From the NCBI GenBank assembly GCA_964528155.1, contig CAZGRL010000001.1:1523-65522 (forward strand): DNA of 64,000 nucleotides. Reading direction: 5' to 3'. Positions 36,038 through 56,325 of this stretch are shown here, piece after piece (position 1 is the stretch's first letter; each line of letters starts with the position of its first letter). A program made the translations under genes and the position numbers. The notes beneath the pieces are model-generated. The model did not search any database. It saw only the letters and a program-made list of their open reading frames with translations, and was not told where the DNA came from. Origin of the DNA: an uncultured Anaerolineaceae bacterium (lineage in GTDB: Bacteria; Chloroflexota; Anaerolineae; Anaerolineales; E44-bin32).

Positions 36038-37190
36038 ATCCCGCAAGTACCTCCGCTTCCCGGTCTCCTATCGAATCGAGCACTGGATCCTGGTTACCGC
36101 TTTCACCACCCTGGCGATCACCGGGCTGGTGCAGAAGTTCCCAATGGCGGGTATCTCGGATGCGATCCTGCGCCTGCTCGGTGGGATCGATACGACGCGG
36201 GTGATCCACCATAGAGCGGCGGTCGTCCTGATGCTGGAAGCCGTGTATCACATCGGTGCCGTCGGATTCCGCCTTTTCGTCCGCCGGACACGTCTTTCGA
36301 TGCTCCCGACGATGACCGATGTTCGTGTGGCCGTGCAGGCGTTGCTCTTCAATCTGGGTCTCAGCAAAGTCCGTCCACAGCAGGGTCGTTTCAGCTTCGA
36401 AGAGAAGGTCGAGTATTGGGCGGTGGTCTGGGGCACCGTGATCATGGCGCTCACTGGCTTCATGATGTGGAACCCGATCGCCACGACCCGCTTACTCCCA
36501 GGGGAGTTTGTGCCGGCGGCGAAGTCGGCCCACGGGGCGGAAGCGGTGCTGGCCGTCCTGGCCATCATCATCTGGCACATCTACCACGTTCACGTCCGCG
36601 AACTCAACAAGAGCATGTTCACCGGTCGACTGACAGAAGACGAGATGATCGAGGAGCACCCGCTCGAGTTGGCCGATCTCAAGGCCGGTGTGGCAGAGCG
36701 TCCGGTCGAACAGCGCTTGCTTACCCGCCGCAAGCGGATTTTCTATCCGGTCTACGGCCTGCTGGCGGCGGTGATGCTCCTCGGGATCTACGCCTTTGTC
36801 GCGTTGGAGCATACAGCTGTTACCACCCTGCCGCCCGCCGAGAATGTCGTCGTCTACGCTCCGCTCACGCCGACACCTTTCCCGACGGCGCTGCCTTCGG
36901 CCACGGCACAGCCGATCACAGCGGTCACCTGGGATGGCGGGATCGGGGCCATTTTCCAGACCAAGTGCGGGACGTGCCACGGCGGGCCGTCGGGTCTGGG
37001 CGGGCTGGATCTGTCCAGCTACGCCGGCATCAGCGCCGGTGGAGTCGACGGCCCGGCGATCGTGCCTGGCGATGCCGACGCCAGCCTGCTGGTATCGAAG
37101 CAATCCGCCGGCGGTCATCCGGGGCAGCTGACCGGTGAGGAACTGGCCCTGGTCCGGCAGTGGATCGAGGCCGGCGCGCCGGAAAACTAA
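36030..37190 (+). CDS. FdnI/HydC-type diheme cytochrome b fused to a C-terminal PSCyt1-like monoheme c domain
   Basis: The N-terminus YLRFPVSYRIEHWILVTAFTTLAITGLVQKF plus four to five TM helices with conserved His fit the Ni_hydr_CYTB type. The C-terminal ~91 aa read WDGGIGAIFQTKCGTCHGG...IVPGDADASLLV...WIEAGAPEN. The gene overlaps the previous one by 8 nt. Confidence 0.85.
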   Translation: MSESRKYLRFPVSYRIEHWILVTAFTTLAITGLVQKFPMAGISDAILRLLGGIDTTRVIHHRAAVVLMLEAVYHIGAVGFRLFVRRTRLSMLPTMTDVRVAVQALLFNLGLSKVRPQQGRFSFEEKVEYWAVVWGTVIMALTGFMMWNPIATTRLLPGEFVPAAKSAHGAEAVLAVLAIIIWHIYHVHVRELNKSMFTGRLTEDEMIEEHPLELADLKAGVAERPVEQRLLTRRKRIFYPVYGLLAAVMLLGIYAFVALEHTAVTTLPPAENVVVYAPLTPTPFPTALPSATAQPITAVTWDGGIGAIFQTKCGTCHGGPSGLGGLDLSSYAGISAGGVDGPAIVPGDADASLLVSKQSAGGHPGQLTGEELALVRQWIEAGAPEN

Positions 37191-37210
37191 AACTCAGGCT
37201 CAATCGGAGA

Positions 37211-38357
37211 ATGCGCATAGAAACGTTGAGAGGGGCGATCCGGCGCTTCTACTTCCCGCCCGAAGGCTCACCCTTGTGGATCGGGCTGCTCCCGTACGCC
37301 ACGCTCGACGTGCTCAGCCTGGCGGCGCTCGTCTCAGGCGCGTACGCCTGGGATTACACCAATTCGCCTCCTTTCTGTGGCGCCGTTTGCCATACCATGC
37401 CGCCCGAATACACGGCTTGCCTGACCTCGCATCACGCCCGGGTGGATTGCGTCGAGTGCCACATCGGCCGCGGGTTCATCGCCACCCGTGTGACCCGCAA
37501 GGCGGGAGATACCAAGTACATCGTCGCTCTGGCTTTCCACGAGTATGAATTTCCGATTCGGGCGACGGACTTGAGGCCGGCCCGCGAGACGTGTGAGCGT
37601 TGCCACTTCCCGGAGAAATTCTCCGACGATAGCCTGCGTCACATTCAACACTATGCCAATGGTGTGGATAACACGCCGACGACGACTTATCTCGTCCTCA
37701 AGACCGGAGGCGGGTCGAAGCGGCAGGGCCTCGGGCGCGGCATCCACTGGCACATCGAGAACCAGGTTCACTATCTGCCGTTGGATCCCGAAGAGCAGTC
37801 GATCCCCTACGTGCGTGTCATCCAGGACGATGGTTCAGTCTCGGAATACGTCGAGTTGGGTTCAGGCATCGATCCGGCCTCGATCAACCCATCCGACTTG
37901 AAGGAGATGGACTGCATCACGTGTCACAACAGGGTCACCCACCTGATCCTCTCGCCCGAGGACACCGTCGATCAGCTCATCACCGGCAGCGCCATTTCGC
38001 AGGAAATCCCCGAATTACACGAGAAGGCCTGTCGAGGTGTACGGCGCGTCATACAGCTTGACCCAGGAGGCCATGTCAGGCATCGCCGGCCTGACATACG
38101 ATGGTGCCATTGGCTTGCTGTTCCAGAACCGCTGTGCCGCGTGCCATGGCGCGTCAGCAACCATGGGCCTCGACCTGACGTCCTACGCCACGGCCATGGC
38201 CGGAAGCAAGAACGGGCCGGTGATCGTGCCCGGTGATCCTCAGGGAAGCCTTCTTGTCCGGAAACAATCGGGGGACCAGCCCCACTTCGGACAGTTCTCA
38301 GCCAAAGAACTTCAACGAGTCGTCGATTGGATCAAGGCCGGTGCGCCTGAGAAGTAA
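37211..38357 (+). pseudogene. NapC/NirT-like tetraheme quinol dehydrogenase plus C-terminal PSCyt1-like monoheme domain, split by a +1 frame error near 38030
   Basis: An N-terminal TM helix and four CxxCH motifs (CGAVCH, CVECH, CERCH, CITCH). After ...EIPELHEKA the frame turns to nonsense, while skipping T38030 gives VEVYGASYSLTQEAMSGIAGLTYDGAIGLLFQNRCAACHG...WIKAGAPEK (ORF 38037-38357). That second part has no signal peptide of its own. Confidence 0.8.
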
Positions 38358-38446: not shown

Positions 38447-38926
38447 ATGGGTGAACCGAACCGAATGGGCCGTCGCCAATTCCTGAGCACGCTGACCTGG
38501 GCGATCGGCGGGGTCATCAGCGCCGGGCTCGGCATCCCTGCCATTGCCTACATCATTGGTCCGGCGCTCCAGGGCACGGGGACCCAGAATTGGATCCGGC
38601 TGGGCTCGACAGCCAAGGTCGAACTCGGAGCCCCCACGCTTTTCAAAGCCCGAATCACCCGCAAGACAGGCTGGATCGAGAACGAGGAAGAACTCTCAGC
38701 CTACGTCAGGACCGACAACGGGCGCGAATTCGTGGCGATGTCCAACATCTGCACCCACCTCGGGTGCCGGGTGCGCTGGGTCAGCGGGCAAGGGGAGTTC
38801 TTCTGCCCCTGCCACAACGGCGTATTCGATAAGGACGGCAACGTCGTGTCCGGCCCTCCGCCGCGACCCCTCGACCGCTATGAAGTTAAGGTCGAGGACG
38901 ACGAACTGTTCATTCTGGGAGGCTGA
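38447..38926 (+). CDS. Rieske [2Fe-2S] subunit of a cytochrome bc-type complex
   Basis: Tat-like RRQFL, and the motifs CTHLGCRVRW and CPCHNGVF. Confidence 0.92.
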   Translation: MGEPNRMGRRQFLSTLTWAIGGVISAGLGIPAIAYIIGPALQGTGTQNWIRLGSTAKVELGAPTLFKARITRKTGWIENEEELSAYVRTDNGREFVAMSNICTHLGCRVRWVSGQGEFFCPCHNGVFDKDGNVVSGPPPRPLDRYEVKVEDDELFILGG

Positions 38927-38928
38927 AC

Positions 38929-39588
38929 ATGGCGGCCAGAGTCGGCGATTGGTTGGACGAACGACTGGGATGGCGGCAGGTCTGGGAAGCGATCTTCCTG
39001 CGCAAGATCCCCAAAGTCAATTGGTTCTACACCCTTGGGAGCGCGGCACTCTTCTTGGCGGTGAATCAGATTGTGACGGGGATTTTGCTCACCATCTACT
39101 ACGTCCCGACCCCCGATCACGCGTATGACAGCGTGCAGTTCATCACCGGGCAGGTCCCGGCCGGCTGGCTAATTCGAGGATTGCACCACTGGGGTGCCAG
39201 CGCCATGGTCGTCATCGTGGGCCTGCACATGTTGCGTGTGATCCTGCAAGGCTCCTACAAGTACCCGCGGGAGGTCACCTGGTTTACCGGTGTTCTTCTC
39301 TTGTTGGCGGTGGTCGGGTTCGGCTTCACCGGATACCTCCTCCCATGGGACCAGAAGGCATTCTGGGCTACGACCGTCGGCACGCGCATCGCCGGGGTGA
39401 CGCCCGTTGTCGGAGAGTGGATCCTGCGCATCATGCGCGGCGGCGAGGAACTCTCAGCGGTCACCCTGGCACGATTCTTCGGCGTACACGTGTGGGTCCT
39501 GCCGGCGGCCTTGCTGAGCCTGGTACTCGTGCACCTCTACCTTGTCATCCGGATCGGGATCAGCGCCCCGCCGAAGAGGGGGGAGTGA
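38929..39588 (+). CDS. Cytochrome b6-like subunit (N-terminal four-helix cytochrome b)
   Basis: 219 aa with NWFYTLGSAALFLAVNQIVTGILL, GLHHWGASAMVV and YLLPWDQKAFWAT, the b6/b N-terminal-domain signatures. It begins 2 nt after the Rieske gene. Confidence 0.9.
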   Translation: MAARVGDWLDERLGWRQVWEAIFLRKIPKVNWFYTLGSAALFLAVNQIVTGILLTIYYVPTPDHAYDSVQFITGQVPAGWLIRGLHHWGASAMVVIVGLHMLRVILQGSYKYPREVTWFTGVLLLLAVVGFGFTGYLLPWDQKAFWATTVGTRIAGVTPVVGEWILRIMRGGEELSAVTLARFFGVHVWVLPAALLSLVLVHLYLVIRIGISAPPKRGE

Positions 39589-39591
39589 CCG

Positions 39592-41694
39592 ATGAACGAA
39601 CAAGAAAAGAAAGAGTACCTGGAGGCCTACCACAAAGCCAAGGAAGCCGGGCCGTCGTTCTTTCCTGACGTCGTCGTCAAAGATGCCGTCGTCGCACTCT
39701 TGGTGTTCCTGGCGCTTGCGGCTCTGGCCTACTTCATCGGCGCCCCGCTCGAAGCCCGGGCCAACCCGGCCGATACATCGTACACCCCTCGACCGGAATG
39801 GTATTTCCTGTTCTTGTTCCAGTTGTTGAAGTACTTCCCGGGGAAGTTGGAGGTTATCGGGGTCATCGTCATCCCGACCGTGGTCCTCGGATTGTTGTTC
39901 TTCTTGCCATTTATCGATCGGACAGCCAAGCGACATCCCATCGGTCGGCCGATTGTCACCGCCGGCGTGACACTGGTCGTGCTCGCCGTCGGGCTGCTGA
40001 CGCTGCAGGCGGTGCGCGAGACGCCTCCGCCGGCCGACACTTCACTCGGTGATCCAACCGCCGCGCTCTACGTCACAAACTGCGCCGGCTGCCACGGCCC
40101 GTCCATCAGCGTGCCGCCCAGCACCAACCTGCACGCCGTCATCGCCCAGGGCAAACACGAAGGCATGCCGGCCTGGAACGCCGATCTCACCAGCGACGAG
40201 ATCGATGCGCTGGCAGGTTTCATCCTCTCCCCCGACGGCAGCCGCCTGTTCACCGAGAACTGTGCCGAATGCCACCAGACCTCTGAACTCGTGGCCAGCG
40301 ATCCACTTGAGCTTAGGTCAGCATTGCAGCAGGGGCCCGACTACCCACCGCACGCCGGTCTGGAAGTGCCGGCCTGGACACAAACACTCAGCCCCGAGGA
40401 GCGCACGGCGCTGCTCAATTTCCTGGTCGCCCCTGACGGGCAGCGCCTGTTCGCCATCAACTGCGCTGCGTGCCACGGACGATCCGTGTCCTTCTCGGGG
40501 GACGAAGCCACCCTGCGCCAGATCATCCAACAGGGCGGGTTGCATCTCGAGATGCCGCCGTGGCGAGAGAGATTGAGCTCGTCGGAGCTCGACATGCTGG
40601 CCAGCTATGTTGTCGACCCGTCCAACACGCCTCAAGGCCAGCAACTGTTCTCCAACTACTGCACCGAATGCCATGGGCAGCGCGTCCCGGCGGAGACTGA
40701 CGTCGAGACGGCCCGCCAGGCAATCGCCAGCGGCGGCGGGCACGAGACGATGCCCGTATGGGGAAACATCCTCACGCCCGAACAAATCGACGCGTTGGTG
40801 AGTTACACACTCGAAGCCGCTCACGGCGCGCCCCTCGAGCTGGGCCAGGATCTCTTTGCCAAGAACTGCTCCGTCTGCCACGGCGATTTCGGCGAAGGCG
40901 GGCCCAACCCAACCCGACCGGACGACATCATCGCCCCAATCAGCTCAGCCGAGTTCCTCGAGACGCGCGATGACGCCACACTGCGAGCGATCATCTCCCA
41001 GGGCCAGCCCAACTTCGGGATGTCACCCTTTGGGAACGCTTACGGAGGCCCGTTGAGCGACGAGGAGGTTGACGCTCTCGTAGCCTTCATCCGATCGTGG
41101 CAAGCAAAGCCTCCGGTGGAACTGCCTCCGGAAATCGTGAGCCGACCGCTATCGATCGAGGGTCCTGACATCTACGCCGAGGTCTGCGCGCAATGCCACG
41201 GCGTTCAAGGCGAAGGCCTGATCGGCCCATCGCTGAGCGATCCTTCGTTCCAATCCGCCAACACGGATGAGCAGATCTACAACACGATCAATGTCGGCCA
41301 CGAGGCCACAGCCATGATCGGCTGGGGAGAGATCCTCAGCGCCGACCAGATCCACCAGCTTGTGGATTACATCCGGAAGCTGGGCGGAGCAGGAGCCGCG
41401 CAAGACGCTGGCGAAGTCTCTTTTAAGAATGACGTGCTCCCCATCCTGGATGAGAAGTGCGGGATCTGTCATGGCAGCCTGGGAGGCTGGGACGCCTCGA
41501 GCCATCAATCGGTGATGGAGAGCGGGGACAATGGGCCAGTCGTGAACCCCGGAGACCCCGAAGCCAGCCTGCTCGCCCAGAAGCTCCTCGGCACTCAGAC
41601 GATTGGAGCAGAGATGCCTCCAGCAGGCCCGCTGCCGCAGGACGAAATCCAGACGATCCTGGATTGGATCAGCGCGGGCGCCTTGGACAACTGA
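39592..41694 (+). CDS. Subunit IV-like (cytochrome b C-terminal) membrane domain fused to seven c-type heme domains
   Basis: The N-terminal ~130 aa contain PEWYFLFLFQLLKYFPG (the PEWY motif of subunit IV). Seven CxxCH motifs follow (CAGCH, CAECH, CAACH, CTECH, CSVCH, CAQCH, CGICH). Six sit in tandem class I-like repeats, and the last sits in a PSCyt1-like module ending WISAGALDN. Confidence 0.88.
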   Translation: MNEQEKKEYLEAYHKAKEAGPSFFPDVVVKDAVVALLVFLALAALAYFIGAPLEARANPADTSYTPRPEWYFLFLFQLLKYFPGKLEVIGVIVIPTVVLGLLFFLPFIDRTAKRHPIGRPIVTAGVTLVVLAVGLLTLQAVRETPPPADTSLGDPTAALYVTNCAGCHGPSISVPPSTNLHAVIAQGKHEGMPAWNADLTSDEIDALAGFILSPDGSRLFTENCAECHQTSELVASDPLELRSALQQGPDYPPHAGLEVPAWTQTLSPEERTALLNFLVAPDGQRLFAINCAACHGRSVSFSGDEATLRQIIQQGGLHLEMPPWRERLSSSELDMLASYVVDPSNTPQGQQLFSNYCTECHGQRVPAETDVETARQAIASGGGHETMPVWGNILTPEQIDALVSYTLEAAHGAPLELGQDLFAKNCSVCHGDFGEGGPNPTRPDDIIAPISSAEFLETRDDATLRAIISQGQPNFGMSPFGNAYGGPLSDEEVDALVAFIRSWQAKPPVELPPEIVSRPLSIEGPDIYAEVCAQCHGVQGEGLIGPSLSDPSFQSANTDEQIYNTINVGHEATAMIGWGEILSADQIHQLVDYIRKLGGAGAAQDAGEVSFKNDVLPILDEKCGICHGSLGGWDASSHQSVMESGDNGPVVNPGDPEASLLAQKLLGTQTIGAEMPPAGPLPQDEIQTILDWISAGALDN

Positions 41695-41857: not shown

Positions 41858-43330
41858 ATGTCGACAGATCGAAGTCGATCCACAATCCCCTGGCTCCGAC
41901 ATAGCCTGCGGGCGCGGGTCGCCATCAGCGTTGCGCTTCCACTGATGCTCGCATTAGCCTCCCTGTCGATTGCCCACTACTTGCGCGGCCGCGACCTGGT
42001 CGAAAGCCAGGTTCGGATGACGGCAGCCCAGCTTGGCCAGATTCTGACAGGAAGCCTGCGTCGGGCGATGCTGGCAAATGACAATCAAATGATCACCGCC
42101 GTCTTAGAGGACGTCGGTAGTATGGAAAACATTGATCGGATCCGTATCGTCGACAGCCAGGGTGTCGTTCGCCTCGACAGCCATTCGACGGACCTCGGTC
42201 GGCAGGAGCTCACCGGCCAGCCGGGGTGCGTCGAGTGCCATGTCTACGATCCTTCTGTCCGACCGCGAGCGGTGCTCCTGACGGGCGCCGCCGGGATCTT
42301 GAGGATCGCCACACCGATCGACAATGAACTGGCCTGCCTGGGCTGTCACTCTGAGTCCCAGAGACACCTGGGTGTCGTCCTGGCCGATGTCCCGGTCCAG
42401 GCGCTCGAACAGAACTTGTTCCACGATCTCGAAATCGATCTGGCGATCTCAGTCGGCATCACGCTGCTGGTGACCATCGGGGTGTATTTGCTCATACACC
42501 GGTCGGTTGTGCGCAGAGTGGAGAGTTTCCTGCCGGCATTGGCGTCATTCGCCCGCGGCGACTTGAGCGCCCGCCTGCCGGAGCGTGGCCGCGAGCACGA
42601 CGAATTGGGGCAACTCGCCGTCGCTTTCAATCAGATGGCCGACGACCTGGAAAGGCATACCCGCGATCAGGCCGCACGAACCAGGCTGCGTCAACGCGCA
42701 ATTGTTGAGGAACGTGAGCGGATTGCCCGCGAACTTCACGACGGCATCGCCCAGCTCCTGGGATTCGTCAACAACAAAGCCATGGCCGTCCGCCTGCTTC
42801 TGAAGAAGAACCAGACCCATGAAGCCGATGATCAGCTCCAACAACTCGAGGAGGCCTCGCACGGTCTTTTCGTCGATGTCAGAGAAGCGATCATCGGCTT
42901 GAGGACCACAGACAAGGCCGGCGTCGGGCTTTCCAGCGCAGTCGAAGACTACACCCACCAATTCAGCCGACTGAGTGGGATCACGGTGGACCTCTCGATC
43001 GGCCCTGGGGTAAGGGATATTGAGCTCAACGCCGAAGTCGAGTTGCAGTTGCTGCGCATCATTCAGGAGGCCCTGACGAACATTCGCAAGCACGCCGCCG
43101 CCAGCCGCGCTTCGGTGAGCCTGCGGAGGAATGACACCAGACTCGAGTTGGCCATCACTGACAACGGCGTGGGCTTCGTGCCGGCCTCTGCGGACTCCGA
43201 CCATCAGCCCCGGTTCGGATTGAGCACCATGCAAGAGCGGGCCGAGTCGATCGGGGCGGCGTTCGAACTGGCTTCCGCGCCGGGGGCAGGCACTCGCGTC
43301 TCCGTCAACGCTCCGCTGGGGAGGAGATAG
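41858..43330 (+). CDS. Sensor histidine kinase (HAMP, HisKA_3, HATPase) with two CxxCH motifs in the extracytoplasmic loop
   Basis: Two TM helices flank a ~170 aa loop containing GCVECH and ACLGCH. HAMP (LAVAFNQMADDL), the H-box ARELHDGIAQLL and the ATPase domain (NGVGF, GLSTMQERA) follow. Confidence 0.9.
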   Translation: MSTDRSRSTIPWLRHSLRARVAISVALPLMLALASLSIAHYLRGRDLVESQVRMTAAQLGQILTGSLRRAMLANDNQMITAVLEDVGSMENIDRIRIVDSQGVVRLDSHSTDLGRQELTGQPGCVECHVYDPSVRPRAVLLTGAAGILRIATPIDNELACLGCHSESQRHLGVVLADVPVQALEQNLFHDLEIDLAISVGITLLVTIGVYLLIHRSVVRRVESFLPALASFARGDLSARLPERGREHDELGQLAVAFNQMADDLERHTRDQAARTRLRQRAIVEERERIARELHDGIAQLLGFVNNKAMAVRLLLKKNQTHEADDQLQQLEEASHGLFVDVREAIIGLRTTDKAGVGLSSAVEDYTHQFSRLSGITVDLSIGPGVRDIELNAEVELQLLRIIQEALTNIRKHAAASRASVSLRRNDTRLELAITDNGVGFVPASADSDHQPRFGLSTMQERAESIGAAFELASAPGAGTRVSVNAPLGRR

Positions 43331-43334
43331 GCGC

Positions 43335-43976
43335 ATGCGGGTCCTCGTAGCCGACGATCACTCCCTCTTCCGGGACGGCGTGGTAAGCCTGTTGGAGGCA
43401 GCCGGTTTCGAGGTCGTCGGCCAGGTGGGAGACGGTCTGGCCGCCGTCGAGTCCGCCATTGACCTGAGGCCTGACCTCGTCTTGATGGATATCACTATGC
43501 CCAAACTCAGCGGGCTGGACGCGCTTCGTCGCATGAGGGCGGAAGCTCCCGAGATCCAGGTGGTCATGCTCACCGTCTCGGACGAGGACAGCGATCTGCT
43601 TGCCGCGATCCAGTCCGGTGCCAAGGGCTACATCCACAAGAGCTTGAGTGCCCAGGAGTTCCTCGACCTGATCGGCGGGCTGGAGCGCGGCGAGGCAGCC
43701 TTGAGCCGGAAGACGGCCGCGCGCCTGATCGCCAGGCTTGGAAACAGGCCCGGGCCTGAGGACGACAGACTGCCGCGCCTCACGCGACGCGAGATCGAGC
43801 TACTCAAGCTGGTGGCCGACGGTTTATCTAACAAGGCCATCGCCCAATCGTTGTCCGTGAGCGAGAACACAGTCAAATATCACGTTCGCAACATCCTGCA
43901 AAAGCTCGGAGTTCAAAACCGGACCGAGGCTGTCGCTCATGCGATCCGCGCCGGGCTCCTCGGCCGTCGTGATTGA
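43335..43976 (+). CDS. NarL/FixJ-family response regulator (REC plus LuxR HTH)
   Basis: MRVLVADDHSLFRDG, LVLMDITMP, and LTRREIELLKLVADGLSNKAIAQSLSVSENTVKYHVRNIL. Confidence 0.93.
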   Translation: MRVLVADDHSLFRDGVVSLLEAAGFEVVGQVGDGLAAVESAIDLRPDLVLMDITMPKLSGLDALRRMRAEAPEIQVVMLTVSDEDSDLLAAIQSGAKGYIHKSLSAQEFLDLIGGLERGEAALSRKTAARLIARLGNRPGPEDDRLPRLTRREIELLKLVADGLSNKAIAQSLSVSENTVKYHVRNILQKLGVQNRTEAVAHAIRAGLLGRRD

Positions 43977-44544: not shown

Positions 44545-44650
44545 GACGACGGGCCCTTTGCTCGGCATGGATGGAAGGAGGTTGCCTCCGCGCGGATTCT
44601 TGCTATCCTGTGACGAAGTCCAAACGAGACCATCAGAGGAGAATGGCTCT

Positions 44651-45670
44651 ATGGGAAGAAGACTGATCATACTTGGCTTGGCTCTCGTCGGTGCGGCGCT
44701 TGTCCTATCGGCCTGTGCGGGTGCCGCGGGCCCAGCGGGCCCCGCGGGACCGCAGGGGGCTGTGGGACCTCAGGGTCCGACCGGTCCGGCCGGCGCGCCA
44801 CCGGCCGCCGCCGACCTGACGTGCACCCAGTGCCATAATGACACTACGTTGATCGACGGCAAGGCGACTGCCTGGAGCGAGTCCCTACACGGGACAGGTG
44901 AGGCCTACGTGCGGGGAACAAGCGCGGACTGCGCAGGCTGTCACTCCGGCGGCGCCTTCAGCGCCAGAATCGCCGCGGGTCTCAGCCCGGACAAGGTTGA
45001 AGCCGGCGATCCCAACCCGACGCGTCAGGATTGCCGCACCTGCCACGAGATCCACACGACATACACCTCCGCCGACTGGGCTTTGGAGACCACCGACCCG
45101 GTGGCTCTCTACGCCATCGAGGGCTCGACTTTCGACGGTGGAAAAGGCAATCTGTGCGCCAACTGCCATCAGCCACGCCGCGATTTCCCTGTCGCAGAGA
45201 ACGGCGTGATCAGTGGAATCTCCACACACTGGGGTCCACACCACGGCCCGCAGAGCGCCATGCTGCTCGGGGTAGCCGGCTCCGTTGCGGGCACCCCCAG
45301 CGCGCACTACTCGGTGGTGAAGGATACGTGCGTCGGATGCCACATGGGTGGAGACGCCGCCAATCACACGTTTGAGCCGGACGTTGCGACCTGCCAGACA
45401 TGTCACACCGATGCCACGGACTTCGACATCAACGGCGTGCAGACCGAAGTCCAGGCGATGATCACTGAACTTGGCGACAAGCTGGTTGCCGCGGGCGTGC
45501 TCAGTGAAAACAGCGCGGATGGTCACCCGACCGTAACAGAAGGCCCCGAGGCTGTCGCGACTGCTCTCTATGACTGGCTCTACGTCGCCCATGAAGACAA
45601 GAGCCTGGGCGTCCACAACCCTGCCTATACCAAGGCTTTGCTCCAGGCGGGTTTGGATGCAATGAAGTAA
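44651..45670 (+). CDS. Hexaheme c-type cytochrome lipoprotein with N-terminal collagen-like Gly-X-Y stalk
   Basis: Lipobox LVLSAC is followed by nine Gly-X-Y triplets (GAAGPAGPAGPQGAVGPQGPTGPAGAP). Six CxxCH motifs follow (CTQCH, CAGCH, CRTCH, CANCH, CVGCH, CQTCH). The C-terminal helices contain EDKSLGVHNPAY, reminiscent of NrfA-type multiheme proteins. GAGGAG lies upstream of the ATG. Confidence 0.85.
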   Translation: MGRRLIILGLALVGAALVLSACAGAAGPAGPAGPQGAVGPQGPTGPAGAPPAAADLTCTQCHNDTTLIDGKATAWSESLHGTGEAYVRGTSADCAGCHSGGAFSARIAAGLSPDKVEAGDPNPTRQDCRTCHEIHTTYTSADWALETTDPVALYAIEGSTFDGGKGNLCANCHQPRRDFPVAENGVISGISTHWGPHHGPQSAMLLGVAGSVAGTPSAHYSVVKDTCVGCHMGGDAANHTFEPDVATCQTCHTDATDFDINGVQTEVQAMITELGDKLVAAGVLSENSADGHPTVTEGPEAVATALYDWLYVAHEDKSLGVHNPAYTKALLQAGLDAMK

Positions 45671-45799: not shown

Positions 45800-45830
45800 A
45801 AGCCGGGCGCCATCTGGCGCCCGGCTTTTC
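45800..45830. terminator. Bidirectional intrinsic terminator (AGCCGGGCGCC-atct-GGCGCCCGGCT)
   Basis: An 11-bp GC stem is followed by TTTTC on the plus strand and by TTCTTCTTATCTTCT on the minus strand. It lies between convergent genes. Confidence 0.8.
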
Positions 45831-45960
45831 ACATGTCACGGCTCGACGCGGGCCGGGAAGGGGCAGACGCCGGAACAAGAAGTCGGGCGGCTTCACCGCC
45901 CGACCACTCGTTCAGACGAAACCTCGATGCGCGAGGACCAGGAGTTGGTCCTGCGCTGTC

Positions 45961-47208
45961 TCAATCGGCTGCCGAAGTCGCCAATTCCGGGACCGGACGA
46001 ATCTCCGGGACTTCCTCGTGATCGACGACATTCAGGTATCGCACCCCCAGCGTGAATGCCATCAAACCATAGGCGATCACACCCGCGCCGGCGAGCGCCT
46101 CGACCAGCGAGGGGAAGTAGTGTGTGTAGCGGGCTACGATCTCCTGCGGCAGATAGGTAAGGACGATCAGTTGTCCGGCCAGGTTCGTGTCCCATCGATA
46201 GGCCACTACTCCGCCGACAATCAGCCCGAGCGCGATCATCCGCACCATGGGCAACCTGCGCAGGCTCGGGCGCAACAGGATGATCATCGGGACGATGATA
46301 CCCAGGATGATCTCACCGACCCAGAAGTTGAAGGAGAGCGGCCCTTGCGTGAGCAGCTGTAATCCCTCAGTACGGCCCGGCAGATAGGTGTAGGTCATCG
46401 AAAGCGCGTCCCAGAACCTGAGGTACAGGTACGCCACAAGGACCCAACCGATGAAGCCCGAGACCTTCTCGAGCAATTCATCCCTGACTTTCACCTGCGC
46501 CGATAGCCGACCAGCAACCATTGAGGCCAGGACGGTCAGTGCCGGTCCACCAGCCATCGCCGACAGGATGAACAGGACGGACAGGTCAGGTCGATACCAT
46601 ATCGGCCTGGCCTTCAGCACGCCGTACGCCGCCCCGAGCGACGACTGGTGAAGGAGGGACAGGCCCAACCCGGCCACCGCCAGATAAGGGGCGTAGTGAT
46701 GAATGCCACTCAATACCTTCGAGACCCGCGGCCATCGGCGCTTGAACCAGGCTGCACCCCCGACGATCGGCGCTGTTTCCAGCGCCAGCACGGTCAGGTA
46801 CAGCGTGACACACATTGTGACTTCCCACAGAACGGAGTGTGGGTTCCAGAAGACCATCGGATGCCAGAATCGATCCGGCCGGCCGATATCGAGAAGCAAG
46901 GTCAGAACCGCCATCGAATACCCGATCAGACCGATGAACGTCGCCGTGCGAGCGACCGGTTGATAGCGCTTGAGATCCAGCAGATATACCGCGGCGCAAA
47001 GCAGGAAAGCGCCGGCGCTCATGGCGATCGATGAAAGATCGATGGTGATCCACAAACCCCAGGGAACCAAATCCGTCAGGTTGGTCACTACCAATCCGCG
47101 AGTGAAGACGACGCCTGCTGCGATTGCACCAAGGAGCATGAACCCGGCCAGCAGCCCGATCCAGATGTGGAAGGCGTTCCGCTTGACCCTAAGGCCGAGA
47201 GCCCTCAT
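45961..47208 (-). CDS. NrfD/PsrC-family polytopic membrane quinol-interacting subunit
   Basis: 415 aa with about ten TM helices. The LVPWGLWITIDLSSIAMSAGAF and DIGRPDRFWH motifs are typical of NrfD-like proteins. The gene overlaps the FeS subunit stop by 4 nt. Confidence 0.88.
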   Translation of the reverse strand: MRALGLRVKRNAFHIWIGLLAGFMLLGAIAAGVVFTRGLVVTNLTDLVPWGLWITIDLSSIAMSAGAFLLCAAVYLLDLKRYQPVARTATFIGLIGYSMAVLTLLLDIGRPDRFWHPMVFWNPHSVLWEVTMCVTLYLTVLALETAPIVGGAAWFKRRWPRVSKVLSGIHHYAPYLAVAGLGLSLLHQSSLGAAYGVLKARPIWYRPDLSVLFILSAMAGGPALTVLASMVAGRLSAQVKVRDELLEKVSGFIGWVLVAYLYLRFWDALSMTYTYLPGRTEGLQLLTQGPLSFNFWVGEIILGIIVPMIILLRPSLRRLPMVRMIALGLIVGGVVAYRWDTNLAGQLIVLTYLPQEIVARYTHYFPSLVEALAGAGVIAYGLMAFTLGVRYLNVVDHEEVPEIRPVPELATSAAD

Positions 47209-47981
47209 GCCGCCACCTCCCCCTTTCGGGCCTGCAAGTAGAAGACCCTGGGGCTCGTCCCCAAGTCTTCGCGCAGCCGGTAGGCCGGATACGTATCAAG
47301 CAGTCGGCTGACCTCCGACTCGGGGTCGTTGAGATCCCCAAAGACGCGGGCCTGTGTCGGGCAAGCCACGACGCAGGCCGGGGTCGCCTGGGGATCGGTC
47401 CCCGGCTTCAGCCCGAGCGCAAGCCCTCGATCGATGCGCTGGTAGCAGAAGGCACATTTCTCGACGACACCGCGCGGCCGCCGTTCGACTTCGGGCTCGC
47501 CCCATTTCGGGACTTCGGGATTTGGGCCTGTGAATTCTTCCCAGTTGAAGGCGCGGGCCCCGTATGGGCAAGCGACTTCACAGTAACGGCATCCGATGCA
47601 GCGATCGTAGTTCATCATGACGATACCGTCAGGCCGATGATAGGTCGCCTCAACCGGGCAGACTTCCACACAGGGAGCGTGCTCGCAGTGCATGCACGGA
47701 CGGGGCAGGTAGACCGGATCCCCGGCGTACGTCCCGGCCTCGATCACCCTGTTCCAGGATATGTCCGGCGGAACATCGTTGGTCGCCCGGCAGGCCATTG
47801 TGCAGTAGCCACATCCGATGCACTTGGCCTGGTCGATGACCATCCCCCAGCGATGAGAGCTGGATTCCTGTGTCTCAGAGGCTGAGGCCCGCTTCACCAC
47901 GTGCAGGCCGACCGTAGCCGAGACGCCGGCCGCCAGTGCCTTGAGGAAGCCCCGTCTGCCTACGGACTGGTCACTCATCAT
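47205..47981 (-). CDS. NrfC/DmsB-type four-cluster [4Fe-4S] subunit with Tat signal
   Basis: Tat motif RRGFLKALAAG. Cys clusters are CIGCGYCTMAC, CMHCEHAPCVEVCP, CIGCRYCEVACP and CAFC...CVVACP. The start is ATG 47981 or 47978. Confidence 0.9.
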   Translation of the reverse strand: MMSDQSVGRRGFLKALAAGVSATVGLHVVKRASASETQESSSHRWGMVIDQAKCIGCGYCTMACRATNDVPPDISWNRVIEAGTYAGDPVYLPRPCMHCEHAPCVEVCPVEATYHRPDGIVMMNYDRCIGCRYCEVACPYGARAFNWEEFTGPNPEVPKWGEPEVERRPRGVVEKCAFCYQRIDRGLALGLKPGTDPQATPACVVACPTQARVFGDLNDPESEVSRLLDTYPAYRLREDLGTSPRVFYLQARKGEVAA

Positions 47982-48903
47982 CGGCCTCTCTTTCGTCCTC
48001 GTCGCCGTCCTGGCGGAGTTGCCTGTACCAGCGCTCGAGCCACGGCGCAAGGATCATCCCGCTGGCCATGCCGATCAGCCCCGACAAGGCTGCAAAACCG
48101 ACCGGGCTGACCGGACCCGGCCCAGCCTGCACGGAGAGAGTGTCGACTGAAGCCATGGCGTCCTGGGGCTCAGGAGTCGGCTGACCCGGGTGGACCGCCA
48201 CGGGGTCATGCATCTGATAGGCATGGCAGTTGTTGCAGGTTGTCAGCCTGACAGTGAAGCTGTGATCCCGAACGGCATGCCCCTCTCCCTGTTGCCCGTC
48301 GAGGGTCGCCATGTGACAGTCGGCGCAACTCAGGCCGACCTGGCTGTGCTGGGAGTGGGTGAAGTTCGAGGCAAGGTCCTTGTGGCAGGCCGCACAGAGG
48401 GTCGAATCGTCGGCCTGTTTCAGGCCCGCCGCATGCGGGTCATGACAGCCGATGCAGTCGACCCCGATCTGTCTATGTTGGCTCGCCTGCCATTCGAACA
48501 TCGTTTCCGTGTGACAGGTGCCGCACAACGCCGCTGAACGCACGGTCGGCATCGGGTCTTTCGGATGATTGGCAGGGATCGGGCTGTGGCAGGCCTCACA
48601 GGTAATGCCTTCGGCCTTGTAGGCATCGGTCACGGGGTCGTAGCCCGTAGTATGGCAGGTCAGGCACTCGCGTGGTTGCCCCTGCTGCTCCCACGCGGCG
48701 CGGAAGGTCGGATCAACGGTGGCGTGTCCGTGGGCGCCGTTAGTCCAGGCTTCCTGGATCTCCCAGTGACAGGTCTGACACGGGATATTCTGCGAGGTCG
48801 GGGTTTGCGCCGAATCGTCGGCGCCGGCCATGGCCGCAGTGAAGAGCACCATCAGTGCGGCGATCGCAAGTCCCACACCGATCCGAAGCATCCATTTATT
48901 CAT
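47971..48903 (-). CDS. Octaheme c-type cytochrome with C-terminal membrane anchor
   Basis: Eight CxxCH motifs counted (CQTCH, CLTCH, CEACH, CGTCH, CIGCH, CAACH, CADCH, CNNCH). The signal peptide begins at MNKWMLRIGVGLAIAAL. ATG 48903 has GAGGAG 9 nt upstream. A C-terminal TM helix and an acidic tail follow. Confidence 0.88.
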   Translation of the reverse strand: MNKWMLRIGVGLAIAALMVLFTAAMAGADDSAQTPTSQNIPCQTCHWEIQEAWTNGAHGHATVDPTFRAAWEQQGQPRECLTCHTTGYDPVTDAYKAEGITCEACHSPIPANHPKDPMPTVRSAALCGTCHTETMFEWQASQHRQIGVDCIGCHDPHAAGLKQADDSTLCAACHKDLASNFTHSQHSQVGLSCADCHMATLDGQQGEGHAVRDHSFTVRLTTCNNCHAYQMHDPVAVHPGQPTPEPQDAMASVDTLSVQAGPGPVSPVGFAALSGLIGMASGMILAPWLERWYRQLRQDGDEDEREADDE

Positions 48904-48929
48904 GCTCTGCATCTCCTCACAACTCGGTC

Positions 48930-49280
48930 TCAGGCCGCCATCGGCGCTGGCATATCCCGAAACACATGACAGGTGAAGCATGTCTCGGGCAATCGACCAT
49001 CCACTTCACGGAAGACTTGCCAGCAAGGTATGTCTGCCCTTCCATAGGCCGGGCAGCTTTCTCGGTCTTCACGTGGACAGTCGTGCATTTCCCAACAGCG
49101 GATCTGGTGCGCCGCCGCACCGAGGGAATGCGCCTGCTGTCGCAGGGCTTCGCTTTCAGCCTGCCAGCGGGCATCCAGGCACCGTAGCCCCCAGGCCACC
49201 AATGCCGTCAGCCCAAGAGGGATCCCAAAACGCAGGATCAGGCCGACCACAAACGTAGCAAGTGCTGTGAGCCCTTCCAT
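48930..49280 (-). CDS. Membrane-anchored Cys-rich protein (two CW motifs, seven Cys)
   Basis: An N-terminal TM helix is followed by RCWEMHDCPREDRESCPAYGRADIPCWQVFREVDGRLPETCFTCHVF. This resembles the 'two-CW' Cys-rich sensory module as I remember it. It is the first large gene of the octaheme/FeS/NrfD operon. Confidence 0.65.
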   Translation of the reverse strand: MEGLTALATFVVGLILRFGIPLGLTALVAWGLRCLDARWQAESEALRQQAHSLGAAAHQIRCWEMHDCPREDRESCPAYGRADIPCWQVFREVDGRLPETCFTCHVFRDMPAPMAA

Positions 49281-49542: not shown

Positions 49543-49845
49543 TTGACCCCATGAAGCCTGCGGGGCGTGGAGCGGAAGTGGGTGGTTTCACCCACGCCGC
49601 AGCGATTGGTGATTGAGCCCAAGGAGCGGTCGTGCTTGAGGCAAACGAAGCCGAAGTCGAAGGGACGGGGCGTCAGAGTCTTCCCACAGCATCCCTCGAC
49701 TTCAATCTACCCGTCCGGCCTATCGGCAATGACGGGATGGGACCTGGAGAGCTTCCAGAACAAGTCTGTCAGGAGAAACGGCTTCGAAACGTGGGTTGCG
49801 TTCAGGGTGCGGGCGCGTGGTGCTGATGGGGCGGGATCGAACGGC

Positions 49846-50496
49846 TTACGCCTGGATGATCCCCTTCCGAATGGCGTACTTCACAAGCTCTGTGCGAGAG
49901 TGCAGATTGAGCTTGCGCATGATGTTCTCACGATGCCGGGCGACGGTCTTCGGGCTGATCCCAAGAGTCTCAGCGATCTCAACGTTGCTGGCGCCATCGG
50001 CCAGATGACCGAGCACCTCTCCCTCGCGTTGCGTCAGCCCGTCGAGCGCGTTCTCTTCGTGAGAGGTCGACTCCTGACTGAGGTAATCCTTGACCAGGAG
50101 CTTGGCCAGGGAGGGGTAGAGGTAGACCTCCCCGCCTGCGGCAGCTCGGATCGCCGTGAGCAGTTCCTCGGGCGCGGCCCGCTTCGGCACATAGCCACTC
50201 GCGCCGGCGTCGAGCATCTTGAAGAAGTACTCTTCGTCTTCGTGGATGGTCAATGCAACGATGGCGATCTCGGGCCGCAAAGCCTTGACCTGACGAGCGG
50301 CGTCGATGCCGGAAAGGTCCGGCAATCCGATATCCATCAGGATGACGTCCGGCCGGAGTCGATCGAGGGAATCGAGAGCCTCGCGCGCCGTCCCTGCTTC
50401 ACCCACGATATCGACATCAGGCTCGTTTTCGAGGAGCATTCTCAAGCCTGATCGCACGACAGCGTGGTCATCCACCAGCAGAAGACGAATCGCCAT
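49846..50496 (-). CDS. NarL/FixJ-family response regulator
   Basis: [26 protein letters not shown], and [43 protein letters not shown] 50496 has AGAGG upstream, and the gene overlaps the kinase gene end. Confidence 0.92.
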
Positions 50497-51967
50497 TTTC
50501 AGCCTCTGATGCTTGATTATAGGGGATCCTGACTTCGACGCGTGTCCCGGCGCCGGGAGTGGAATCGACTCGCAGCTGTCCACCAAGCAGACTCGCCCTC
50601 TCTTCCATCCCGATCAGCCCCCAGGCCCGCCGGTCAGGCGTGTCGATCCGATTCTTGTCAAAGCCGCAACCGTCATCCTCCACTTGTAGACCGACAACCT
50701 CGTCCGCGTAATCCAGGCGGACCGTCACCTTGTTCGCCTTGGCATGTTTGATGACATTGGTCAATGCTTCCTGGGCGACGCGAAACACCGTCGTCTTCAC
50801 GACGGATGGGATCGGCCTCTCCTCGCCGCGCACCTGCACACTGACCTCGAGAGGAACCCGCGACTGGATCTCGCCAGCATACCAGCGCAGGGCCGCCGGA
50901 AGCCCGAGGTCATCCAGGTGGGATGGCCGCAGATCGGAGATTAACCGCTGAAGTTCGTCCAGGGAGCGCGCCGTCAGACTCTCCAGCTGCCGCAGGTTCT
51001 TGACCCCTTTCTCGTTGTCGGTCGGAAGCATCACAGATATCCCCCGCAGCCCGAGGCCGATCGCCGTCAGTGCCTGGCCGGTCTCATCGTGGAGCTCACG
51101 CGCAATCCGTTGCCGTTCGGCCTCTTGAGCCGCGACCACGCGGCGCAACAGTTCACCTCTCAGCGCTTCCCTCCGCTGTGCCTCCTCCAGCCTTGCGGAT
51201 TGCAGCACGGCGATTTGCCTTTGGGTCTCTACCTCGAACGAACGCAAGAATCGAATGACAAACAGGGCTGCCACAACCGCGGCGACGGCGCGAACGACCT
51301 GGACCGGAACGCCGAATGTGGATTGGAACAGTTCTTGGTTGATTACGTTGGAGGGAAACAACGGGCTGGCCCGACTGAACACCTGTCCGATAAGACCGTA
51401 CCAGGCAAATGCCACCGCGGCCCATAGACTATCTCGTCCGAATTGAGCTAGGCCCGCCTGCCGGAAAGCCCGCTGCTGGGCGATCAGCCCAGCCGAGGCG
51501 AGTAACGCCGCGGGAAGCCCGAGAACATAGCGCGACCACACATCGGCCACATTCCACAGGACGCTCTCGCCTGGATAGCGACCTCGCAGCGCCATCAGGC
51601 CGAAGCCCCAGATCGCCGCCATGATCAGAGGAACCAGGAGGCTGACACGCCGCCACTGCTGCGTGGGAGCCAGGAGAGAGGCGCCGAATGCCCCCAGCGA
51701 CAGGAATGAAAACGCCAGGATCGCCAGCCTCAAGCCTTCCCAGGCCAGGCCGCCCGTGAACTGCAACGGCAAGACCTGAAGACTGAGGAACATCTCGAGC
51801 CACTCGTGAATCCCATGCAGCAGGCCGAAGCCCGCCAAAGGTCGTAGGGCGTGCCGCAGCCTCGCATCCGTCCCTCGACCCACTTCGAGGGTGATGGCCA
51901 GTCCCATGCTGAAGAACGCGAGACCGTAGAGGAAGAAGATCAGGGGGATGCCGGAGTCGTAGGACAT
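50468..51967 (-). CDS. Sensor histidine kinase with polytopic membrane-embedded N-terminal domain (HisKA_3 plus HATPase)
   Basis: About six or seven TM helices with no large periplasmic loop. The H-box is [15 protein letters not shown] and the ATPase domain carries DDGCGF and GLIGMEERA. Confidence 0.9.
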
Positions 51968-53880: not shown

Positions 53881-54717
53881 TCAGCGGAGTGTTTGCAGGT
53901 ACGCGATCAAGTCCGCCGCATCTTGGATTGTGAGTCGCTCTCCGTAGTTGCCCGGCATGATGTTTGGCTCGTATCCCGGCACCACGAATGCGTTCGGCAT
54001 CACGATTGACTCAAGCAGGTACTGTTCCGCCGAAGTCGCTTTCCCGGTGTACTCGGGCTGTTCGATTCGCATGGCCGCCCGATCTCCAATGCCGGGCGTA
54101 TCGCCGCTCGGAAGCCATGCCGGTCCGGTTGCCGCCAGAATATGACAGCCGACACACCCCAGATTGCCTTCGGTGAGCGCTTTACCTCGATCGGCATCCC
54201 CGGGCGGTAGCGGGACCGTGACATCCGTACCCATAGCGTTCGCCATCGGCGTCGGGGTGGGTCCGGCCGCATCCTGCAGCGCCCTGTCCTGCCAGTTCAT
54301 GATGTAGGCTACGAGCGAGTTGATCTGGTCATCTCGGAGTGGTCCTCCGAAATCCTGTGACCACGTCGGCATTCTCTGAGGATAGTTCGTGCCCTCACTC
54401 GGCACCGGCCGACCCGAGCTTATCGTCGCCCGAACATAGTCTTGCACAGTCCCGGCGAAATCGATCGCCTTCAACCGATCGCCATTGAACAGATCAGCGG
54501 CGTTGATCGCCGGGGCTACGCCCTCAATCCCCTTGCCCTGGGGCCCATGGCACGGGCGGCAGTTGTTCTCGAAAATCAGTGCGCCGGTTTCAATCTGACG
54601 AGCGTCATAGGACGTCGTGAAGTTGGCCATGCGCCGGGGCTCCCCGACGCCGACAACCGCCAGGACAATGATCGTCGCCGCAACGGCCAGCGCTCCAAGG
54701 GCAATCTGCCACTTCAT
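53881..54717 (-). CDS. Diheme c-type cytochrome with N-terminal TM anchor
   Basis: An N-terminal TM helix, the heme sites CRPCHGPQGKG and CVGCH, and MPTW/MPGN Met motifs. It begins 3 nt after the cytochrome b gene. Confidence 0.88.
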   Translation of the reverse strand: MKWQIALGALAVAATIIVLAVVGVGEPRRMANFTTSYDARQIETGALIFENNCRPCHGPQGKGIEGVAPAINAADLFNGDRLKAIDFAGTVQDYVRATISSGRPVPSEGTNYPQRMPTWSQDFGGPLRDDQINSLVAYIMNWQDRALQDAAGPTPTPMANAMGTDVTVPLPPGDADRGKALTEGNLGCVGCHILAATGPAWLPSGDTPGIGDRAAMRIEQPEYTGKATSAEQYLLESIVMPNAFVVPGYEPNIMPGNYGERLTIQDAADLIAYLQTLR

Positions 54718-54720
54718 GGA

Positions 54721-56310: not shown

Positions 56311-56325
56311 CTTATCCTCCTCGGG

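Follow-up and report, generated by a model that had tools for sequence, protein, structure and literature searches.

A collagen-like Gly-X-Y stalk between the lipobox and a hexaheme cytochrome domain in an Anaerolineaceae bacterium and its relatives

The window analysed here, a stretch of 64,000 nucleotides (nt) of contig CAZGRL010000001.1 from an uncultured Anaerolineaceae bacterium, carries the gene of a hexaheme c-type cytochrome in which nine Gly-X-Y triplets follow one another without interruption between a lipoprotein signal peptide and the heme domain (Table 1). Chance is excluded as the origin of this run and, judged from its sequence pattern in the window and among relatives from three phyla, the stalk is a genuine, selected bacterial collagen-like module and not a chance low-complexity linker. 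We lean towards a functional, trimeric stalk mounted on an electron-transfer cytochrome as its explanation. The original prediction had described Gly-X-Y repeats on multiheme cytochromes as unfamiliar. This holds for the literature that was searched (collagen together with multiheme cytochromes, electron transfer or Chloroflexi), where no description of such a stalk was found, and the MBE paper on the evolution of OcwA/NrfA modules leaves collagen unmentioned; it does not hold for the sequence databases, in which the combination is common. There it is annotated piecemeal, by the Pfam Collagen model (PF01391) next to cytochrome models or as 'collagen-like protein', the bare name that NCBI gives to one family member.

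The collagen-like module and its cargo

The N-terminal part of the protein reads MGRRLIILGLALVGAALVLSAC-A-(GAA GPA GPA GPQ GAV GPQ GPT GPA GAP)-PAAADLT-CTQCH, with Pro at position X in six of the nine triplets. The coordinates and the reading of the triplets in the original prediction are exact, and counting confirmed the six-heme domain that it had placed behind them, the CxxCH motifs starting at residues 58, 94, 128, 169, 227 and 248 (nt 44822, 44930, 45032, 45155, 45329 and 45392). Its statement that the stalk follows directly on the lipobox Cys and leads straight into the hemes stands as to the order of the parts but not as to their contiguity, since one Ala follows Cys22 and seven residues precede heme 1. 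The signal peptide (MGRR, hydrophobic core, LSAC) conforms to the lipobox pattern [LVI][ASTVI][GAS]C, and C22 is nearly invariant in the family alignment. In six frames of the 64 kb, Gly-X-Y runs of at least five triplets are confined to this stalk and to an overlapping frame of the same DNA, and nine triplets were reached in none of 200,000 shuffles of the 35-residue segment from Cys to heme 1 (maximum 8, once); it is on these grounds that a chance origin is excluded. The NCBIfam models of Scl and Lcl match the Gly-X-Y part only, at 14-16 bits against cut-offs of 325-500, and the window protein contains no LPXTG motif.

A homology search with the whole protein returned 2,341 relatives. The best 120, which were inspected (61-94% identity), come from Anaerolineales, Promineifilaceae and other Chloroflexota metagenome-assembled genomes (MAGs), and essentially every one with a complete N-terminus has the lipobox Cys and 7-16 perfect triplets. 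To remove the bias introduced by the stalk itself, the heme domain alone (residues 51-339) was compared with 1.84 billion cluster representatives, which gave 1,109 matches at E<=1e-3; most of the full-length proteins among the best 150 (35-63% identity) likewise carry a lipobox Cys and Gly-X-Y triplets directly before heme 1. The N-module used on its own as a query (residues 1-50) yielded 37 candidates, none of them usable. Far from being absent from orthologues, the run is present, uninterrupted and behind the lipobox Cys, in 257 of the 343 family members with a complete N-terminus (~75%, pooled, counting at least four triplets), which belong to Chloroflexota, Actinomycetota and Bacteroidota. 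The first Gly usually lies one residue past the Cys, and the median gap to heme 1 is six residues.

As to the variation in repeat number among relatives, a point raised by the original prediction, triplet counts range from 4 to 16 across the 257 stalked members (median 9, modes 8-9 and 12-15) and differ by whole triplets only. The count also changes fast, being shared by only 36% of pairs at 80-90% identity of the heme domain and by only 17-19% at 60-80%. In the pooled triplets Pro occupies X in 56% of cases and Gly occurs at X or Y in less than 1%, while Y is taken by Ala (40%), Asp (14%), Gln (11%), Glu (10%) and Pro (10%). Two styles can be told apart, a high-GC one ('AAC-AG-(GPA/GPQ/GPE)n') and a low-GC one with Lys/Asp-rich triplets ('SC-(x)EGPxGPAG-(xDG)n'). 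A second homology search assigned the latter to Bacteroidota, two cultured isolates (Mariniphaga anaerophila and Maribellus sediminis) among them, and there the periodicity is equally perfect with other codons and other X and Y residues. Since Gly stays at every third position while the length changes, the stalk does not behave as a disordered Gly/Pro/Ala linker; strict periodicity in spite of changing length and composition is the signature expected of a segment that forms a triple helix. Two irregular members were seen as well, namely a frameshift within the Gly-X-Y run of one gene (L053, 9925-10909) and a Gly in place of the lipobox Cys in another (L003, about 2618), which may reflect assembly errors, pseudogenes or repeat slippage.

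A scan of GTDB with one genome per species found relatives in 236 genomes, from which 80 loci were retrieved. The nearest relative, at 81-83% identity, is from Chloroflexota MAGs, and an exact look-up of the window protein matched no record. The stalk is present in 44 of the 47 loci labelled Chloroflexota, in 8 of the 11 labelled Actinomycetota and in 2 of the 13 labelled Planctomycetota, Eisenbacteria or Krumholzibacteria, taxon labels of MAGs that may carry binning errors. In the last group the protein starts with a plain Sec signal, or else its lipobox is followed by a short linker of non-collagen type (CDRTITRVE...), and in a Thermoleophilia locus (L024) and an unclassified one (L026) an N-terminal SLH-type wall-binding domain stands in place of lipobox and stalk. 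Heme domains that are closely related (55-77% identity) thus sit on envelope anchors that differ from lineage to lineage, and the distribution of the stalk is lineage-specific without strictly following the division into monoderms and diderms. An SLH-like swap is likewise seen among P0127, P0129, P0142, P0143 and P0145, and other members have Ser/Thr/Pro-rich linkers or a plain signal peptide.

The module is also found on other cytochromes. In the retrieved loci (1.25 Mb), once a few low-complexity or alternate-frame artefacts are set aside (e.g. L043, L062, L059/L071), Gly-X-Y runs of at least six triplets in real open reading frames (ORFs) occur only on multiheme lipoproteins; none of the 17 predicted lipoproteins of these loci with fewer than four CxxCH has a stalk, in a sample that is small and biased. 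Besides the hexaheme proteins, the carriers are octahemes of ~420 residues (L002 5545-6807 (+) and 13062-14324 (-), L010, L047 3105-4355), a decaheme of 787 residues (L016 7076-9436), which the MtrC/MtrF domain II/IV model matches with 82 bits, and pentahemes of ~450 residues (L019 939-2282, which includes a class-I cytochrome c domain, and L059). The union of Gly-X-Y repeats with multiheme domains for which the original prediction had proposed a database search is accordingly found on at least four cytochrome architectures.

A metagenome scan blind to the cargo, which looked for DNA encoding C-A-G-x-x-G-P-x-G-P-x-G-P-x-G and is biased to the Chloroflexota style of stalk, gave 77 matches in a signal-peptide/lipobox context. 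CxxCH motifs are present in 56 of them (~73%), at least four motifs in 45 and one to three in 11, the latter mostly in ORFs cut by contig ends; the other 21 comprise a few real non-heme cargos and several tiny or frameshifted ORFs. Heme motifs occur in none of the 48 matches outside the lipobox context, which are ordinary long collagen-like or fibre-like proteins. What the lipobox-plus-Gly-X-Y module anchors is thus mainly, if not in every case, a c-type cytochrome, and mostly a multiheme one. The non-heme proteins that begin in the same way include a recurrent cargo of ~130 residues ('VNRxEATGVFDxSGTF'; L086, L114, L199) and large proteins of 520-1160 residues (L093, L135, L164). A different linker is seen in decaheme lipoproteins of 710-745 residues (L059 11679-13874; L017, L066, L071), where repeated Cys-Pro-rich units (CPEAPPCPDCPEAPACPDCPECPEP) follow the lipobox; some of these share their signal peptide with the stalked hexaheme protein of their own locus.

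The hexaheme domain

In the heme domain, Pfam recognised MtrC/MtrF domain II/IV, above its cut-off, together with cytochrome c7, cytochrome c3 and paired-CxxCH models, and the window protein reached no family cut-off of NCBIfam. A search of the PDB with the single sequence matched collagen peptides only, through the Gly-X-Y part. A family profile run against PDB sequences retrieved 6qvm (4e-16), OcwA (6i5b, 6e-15) and NrfA structures (6e-11 to 2e-7). The entry 6qvm is a 'Multiheme cytochrome cf' of 681 residues and, since the OmhA gene of Carboxydothermus ferrireducens has the same length, it is probably that protein. The AlphaFold2 (AF2) monomer model, built from 71 sequences, gives a confident fold over residues 150-339 but a poor one over residues 43-145, where the predicted local distance difference test score (pLDDT) falls below 50; it was used only for the C-terminal helices (residues 260-280, 300-315 and 324-338, a three-helix bundle spanning 260-338) and for a cautious Foldseek search of the PDB, which placed OcwA (6i5b) first (E 4e-4, TM 0.39), followed by NrfA and octaheme nitrite reductases. 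These comparisons place the domain in the NrfA/OcwA superfamily.

Six histidines outside the heme motifs (H80, H135, H197, H219, H239 and H322) are conserved in 93-100% of 112 diverse members. Because they match the six hemes in number, all six hemes may be bis-His ligated, and no CxxCK motif is found in the window protein. This points to electron transfer and not catalysis as the probable role of the domain. An enzyme of the NrfA, HAO or OTR type was rejected, since CxxCK is absent and the conserved histidines suffice for all six distal ligands. Nitrite reductase NrfA proper was discarded too, the protein having six hemes instead of five and no CxxCK and scoring 18.2 bits with the NrfA model PF02335 (Cytochrom_C552), under the 24.1-bit cut-off and over the C-terminal part only. 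Neither is it one of the OmcA/MtrC decahemes: with six hemes it scores 23.3 bits against a cut-off of 209.3 for TIGR03507 (OmcA/MtrC family), only the generic domain II/IV model of Pfam being passed. The window protein is a full member of neither Scl/BclA nor NrfA nor OmcA/MtrC.

Triple helix or single-chain tether

The analysis shows the anatomy of the sequence, its conservation and strict periodicity, the change of repeat number by whole triplets, the swapping of anchors between lineages, the reuse of the module on other multiheme cytochromes, the homology of the heme domain to surface cytochromes of Gram-positive bacteria and the conserved respiratory neighbourhood. Lipidation, a triple helix and its stoichiometry, the site of the protein in the envelope, and the path of the electrons with its direction and partners are inferred, as are the rigidity and the bridging of the envelope in the original prediction, and can be combined into the following model. 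The module made up of the signal peptide with its lipobox Cys, the stalk and the linker would tether an all-bis-His hexaheme domain to the outer face of the cytoplasmic membrane of the host, presumably a monoderm bacterium of the Anaerolineae type. Sec export and lipidation would come first; the N-terminal lipids would concentrate three chains and set their register in the plane of the membrane, and the Gly-X-Y segments of these chains would then zip into a triple helix of ~7.7 nm (27 residues x 0.286 nm; about 3.4-14 nm for the 4-16 triplets of the family) carrying 18 hemes. Such a helix would fix how far the heme domains stand from the membrane. They might relay electrons between quinol-oxidising complexes of the membrane and acceptors or partner cytochromes that lie further out, as part of an extracellular electron-transfer chain, and on the membrane side their donors or partners could be the CbcL-like nonaheme/b561 pair, a bc-type complex, and NrfCD with an octaheme cytochrome.

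A triple helix is favoured because of the strict periodicity, Pro at X, the lack of Gly at X and Y, and the insertion or deletion of whole triplets, to which may be added the Scl2-like Lys/Asp triplets, the matching of stalks within genomes, and the ability of bacterial domains free of hydroxyproline (Hyp) to fold. Bacterial Gly-X-Y proteins without Hyp do form triple helices, Scl1 and Scl2 being examples (2022 review of prokaryotic collagen-like proteins).

Several observations weigh against the trimeric model. With nine Hyp-free triplets, or 27 residues, the run is short for a triple helix that has to form on its own, and far shorter than the characterised bacterial collagen domains; Scl2, by comparison, has ~79 triplets and a melting point near 36 °C (2022 review). 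Free Hyp-free collagen peptides of 27 residues are marginal triple-helix formers in the absence of a nucleating domain, and the Pfam and NCBIfam scan of the window protein recognised no trimerisation domain (V, C1q-like or coiled coil). Because the run is short, PF01391 gives residues 24-49 only 18.4 bits, under its 27.2-bit cut-off, which is passed by longer-stalked orthologues (precomputed annotation) and by the L002 octaheme. The pooled Y positions are Ala-rich, with Thr at only ~4%, whereas bacterial collagens are typically Thr-rich at Y. In the monomer model the pLDDT of the stalk is low to moderate, and OcwA, the closest solved relative, is a monomer or dimer in solution and not a trimer. 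Furthermore, lipidation of Cys22 is predicted from the motif alone, the electron-transfer role is drawn from homology and gene neighbourhood, and a simple account of the stalk as a spacer for the monoderm wall is incomplete, because diderm Bacteroidota have stalks as well. A Hyp-free stalk of nine triplets would depend on assistance, either by the lipid anchor or by the heme domain. Short collagen peptides gain strongly in stability when they are lipidated at the N-terminus or fused to an oligomerising domain; here the C-terminal three-helix bundle or lipid anchoring could substitute for a trimerisation domain, and membrane-nucleated folding of the stalk is plausible.

Four loci with tandem hexaheme paralogues, a small sample, allow stalks to be compared within a genome. 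Amino-acid identities of the N-module and of the heme domain are 93% (66/71) and 53% in L016 (Anaerolineales chromosome CP070639; genes at about 9.87 kb and 11.36 kb), 96% and 66% in L019 (about 9.87 kb and 11.42 kb), 70% and 70% in L025, and 64% and 54% in L033, the triplet numbers being 13 and 13, 13 and 13, 11 and 11, and 8 and 7, respectively. Over these four pairs, the stalk, which is the most variable part of the protein between genomes, is the most conserved part within a genome. Because 20 of the 66 identical N-module residues in L016, spread through the module, are encoded by different synonymous codons (41% in the heme domain), selection at the protein level, and not just fresh gene conversion, seems to have kept the identity there. 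In L019 the signal-peptide DNA is identical between the paralogues, so partial gene conversion contributes in that case. The matching of stalks within genomes fits either co-assembly of the chains in one helix or a cell-specific 'ruler' length.

Co-assembly might extend to different cytochromes of one cell, which would form mixed triple helices and thereby lipid-anchored 'bouquets'. This possibility, which overlaps with the trimeric model and which, as the main purpose of the stalk, we regard as distinctly unlikely, would account for the equal triplet numbers of three paralogue pairs with near-identical stalks and diverged heme domains, when unrelated genome pairs of similar divergence share their count in only the 17-19% of cases given above. 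It would also suit the L016 decaheme, whose signal peptide and first triplets are shared with the hexaheme paralogues of its locus, and those loci in which several cytochrome types are all stalked. The argument is limited by the number of paralogue pairs and by the 5' DNA identity in L019, which fits partial gene conversion; moreover, the cytochrome types of one locus often differ in triplet number (9 versus 13 and 10 in L002, 13 versus 11 in L016), and the window contains a single stalked gene.

Alternatively, the stalk may act as a monomeric spacer, that is, an extended, polyproline-II-rich and protease-resistant tether that gives one hexaheme domain reach and mobility, much as the Ala/Pro-rich linkers do in other membrane-anchored cytochromes c. 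We consider this unlikely, while giving it more weight than any other alternative to a trimer. The shortness of the run, with its median of nine triplets, the lack of a recognised trimerisation domain, the solution state of OcwA and the pLDDT of the stalk all agree with it, and in the same loci other multiheme lipoproteins apparently serve this purpose with Pro/Thr/Cys-rich linkers that are not collagen-like. A flexible tether, however, requires neither Gly at every third position nor X and Y positions almost devoid of Gly nor indels of whole triplets, features that hold in more than 250 sequences of three phyla, and it leaves unexplained why paralogue stalks are 93-96% identical when the heme domains reach only 53-66%. 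Spacing would be secondary if the stalk were a platform for binding or modification, offering sites for glycosylation, hydroxylation or a ligand such as a wall polymer, the S-layer or a mineral. Known bacterial collagen-like proteins are surface adhesins, BclA is glycosylated (2022 review), and an SLH wall-binding domain replaces the stalk in some lineages. Such a role is nevertheless very improbable. The X and Y residues differ strongly from lineage to lineage, Pro/Ala-rich in some and Lys/Asp-rich in others, which speaks against a specific ligand site; Y positions seldom hold Thr; and none of the genes scanned around the locus was recognised as coding for a hydroxylase or glycosyltransferase. 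Finally, the idea of a functionless, slippage-prone low-complexity linker of a GC-rich genome could draw on the two short 9-bp tandem arrays in the stalk DNA, on the varying repeat number and on the frameshifted run in L053. It is effectively refuted by the uniqueness of the run in six frames of 64 kb, by the shuffling result, by the perfect periodicity of the low-GC Bacteroidota stalks with their other codons and residues, and by the association of the run with the position behind the lipobox and with a specific class of cargo.

Gene neighbourhood, known systems and significance

The window is a respiratory island that begins with Ccm genes (CcmF, CcmE); its features are collected in Table 1.

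Table 1. Features of the hexaheme cytochrome gene and of its surroundings in the 64-kb window
Feature	Position (nt)	Strand	Remarks
Nonaheme cytochrome	34868-36037	+	Pfam
Cytochrome b561/Ni_hydr_CYTB membrane protein	36030-37190	+	Pfam; C-terminal c-type heme domain
NapC/NirT-type cytochrome	37160-38236	+	Pfam, synteny
Rieske / cytochrome b / (cytochrome b C-terminal part fused to multi-heme c) complex	38447-41694	+	Pfam, synteny
Histidine kinase	41858-43330	+	Two CxxCH (CVECH, CLGCH) in N-terminal part, before kinase core
LuxR-type response regulator	43335-43976	+	Two-component system upstream of hexaheme gene
orf153, conserved small ORF, 153 residues	44083-44544	+	No Pfam match; immediately upstream of hexaheme gene
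Shine-Dalgarno-like GAGGAG	44636-44641	+	9 nt upstream of ATG; read from sequence
Hexaheme cytochrome ORF	44651-45670	+	ATG 44651, stop 45668-45670, 339 residues
Predicted lipoprotein signal peptide, residues 1-22	44651-44716	+	n-region GRR, hydrophobic core, lipobox L19-S20-A21-C22
Collagen-like stalk, residues 24-50	44720-44800	+	Nine Gly-X-Y triplets without interruption
Linker PAAADLT, stalk to heme 1	44801-44821	+	D-L-[ST] before first CxxCH conserved
Hexaheme c-type cytochrome domain, OcwA/OmhA/NrfA superfamily	44822-45667	+	Pfam, AF2, Foldseek, PDB profile search, conservation
Two GC-rich terminator-like hairpins	45800-45827, 45881-45905		Gap of convergent hexaheme and NrfD genes; consensus matches only
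NrfD-like membrane subunit	45961-47208	-	Convergent operon; Pfam, synteny
NrfC-like 4Fe-4S protein	47205-48050	-	Convergent operon; Pfam, synteny
Octaheme cytochrome	47971-48981	-	Convergent operon; Pfam, synteny
LuxR-type regulator of second two-component system	49846-50586	-	Pairs with histidine kinase 50468-51967
Second bc-type complex	53881-56961	-	Rieske, 529-residue cytochrome b, dihaem cytochrome c

The nonaheme/b561 pair looks like CbcL, the quinol oxidoreductase of Geobacter, split in two, and is a candidate for the same function. In other genomes nothing is met more often close to the hexaheme gene than this pair, which is often directly adjacent, and it also stands beside Bacteroidota homologues. 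More generally, hexaheme genes of Chloroflexota and Actinomycetota loci are surrounded by the same neighbours as in the window, and the order kinase-regulator-orf153-hexaheme is kept in related loci (L020, L031, L034, L051, L063), with several Anaerolineales loci among those that show it. The heme motifs in the N-terminal part of the kinase suggest that it may be a heme-based redox sensor. The gene at 39592-41694 encodes 700 residues in which a PetD-like C-terminal part of cytochrome b is joined to a region with seven CxxCH and five stretches matching class-I cytochrome c (cbb3-type). A long putative gene without Pfam match, 'orf294' (49567-50451, +), was dismissed as an antisense shadow of the LuxR-type regulator at 49846-50586 (-).

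In the Bacteroidota isolates (L081 11518-12432; L082 9511-10404) the hexaheme homologue comes after a Crp/Fnr regulator and is followed by a small protein, a DUF5777 'membrane bound beta barrel' protein, a multiheme cytochrome and a Ni_hydr_CYTB cytochrome b. Other loci of the Bacteroidota type have a protein of ~400 residues without clear Pfam match in the place of the beta-barrel, and one has a CbcL-like fusion of b-type and multiheme parts. The cluster looks like a porin-cytochrome-type conduit that would be undescribed so far, and the literature searched makes no mention of DUF5777. A beta-barrel partner was not found in the 64-kb window. Taken together, the neighbourhood supports a role of the hexaheme protein in an electron-transfer chain that crosses the envelope.

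Among collagen-like proteins, Scl1/Scl2 of Streptococcus pyogenes, BclA of Bacillus anthracis and Lcl of Legionella share with the present family a Hyp-free, uninterrupted Gly-X-Y run with Pro at X and a variable repeat number, and in all of them the run works as a stalk from which a globular domain is displayed at the cell envelope; the Lys/Asp-rich triplets of the Bacteroidota type (GKDGKDG) also occur in Scl. The family differs in its much shorter runs (4-18 triplets, compared with 17 to >90 in BclA and about 50-80 in Scl), in its anchor, which is a predicted N-terminal lipidated Cys in place of LPXTG (Scl) or the basal layer of the exosporium (BclA), in the lack of a recognised V-type or C1q-type trimerisation domain, and in Y positions that are rich in Ala, Gln, Glu and Asp instead of Thr. 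As cargo it carries a multiheme cytochrome; cytochromes go unmentioned in the 2022 review of prokaryotic collagen-like proteins.

Among cytochromes, the nearest counterparts are OcwA, the nonaheme terminal reductase at the surface of the Gram-positive metal reducer Thermincola potens, and OmhA, the dominant surface cytochrome of C. ferrireducens during ferrihydrite reduction. OcwA consists of a heme domain that is globular and of a C-terminal three-helix bundle, and OcwA and 6qvm share with the hexaheme protein a homologous heme domain; in OcwA and in the model of the hexaheme protein a globular part with the hemes is followed by three C-terminal helices. OcwA and OmhA, presumably like the hexaheme protein, belong to bacteria that have to pass electrons through a wall without an outer membrane. 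The hexaheme protein has six hemes, in contrast to nine in OcwA, where hemes 2 and 5 are in open coordination, and eleven in OmhA/6qvm. According to their descriptions, OcwA and OmhA are secreted or adhere loosely to the surface, and both lack the lipobox and the collagen stalk found here. With MtrC/OmcA and the porin-cytochrome conduits of Shewanella and Geobacter the protein would have in common that a lipid-anchored multiheme cytochrome is placed distally in a chain from quinol to the outside, yet it has six hemes and an NrfA-type fold, and MtrC lacks a collagen-like stalk. Braun's lipoprotein Lpp is a lipidated trimeric rod of ~8 nm that sets a distance in the envelope, built as an alpha-helical coiled coil, linked to peptidoglycan and devoid of a cargo domain. 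The design principle would be shared, with the difference that here redox domains would be mounted on the rod, which would be a collagen triple helix.

Where an outer-membrane conduit is lacking, the route that respiratory electrons take from the membrane through the bacterial wall is still poorly understood, and the Chloroflexota, abundant in sediments, soils and bioreactors, are hardly tractable. A collagen-like anchor would provide a structural hypothesis for the crossing of the wall and a new functional class of bacterial collagens, and the succession of lipobox, Gly-X-Y and CxxCH offers a sequence signature by which envelope cytochromes can be sought in metagenomes. The presence of the same architecture in the cultured M. 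anaerophila and M. sediminis makes the hypothesis directly testable, and short self-assembling stalks that array hemes at fixed distances could be of interest for the design of bioelectronic proteins. It is tempting to go one step further, to a reading that we hold to be possible, if short of probable, in which collagen triple helices are a dedicated device for assembling and spacing extracytoplasmic multiheme cytochromes, with rods of ~6-15 nm matched in length within a cell, zipped from three lipid-anchored chains, like or unlike, and bearing 18 or more hemes that would take electrons across the envelope of Chloroflexota, Actinomycetota and Bacteroidota. If true, this would amount to an unrecognised architecture of extracellular electron transfer and to the first redox function for the collagen fold.

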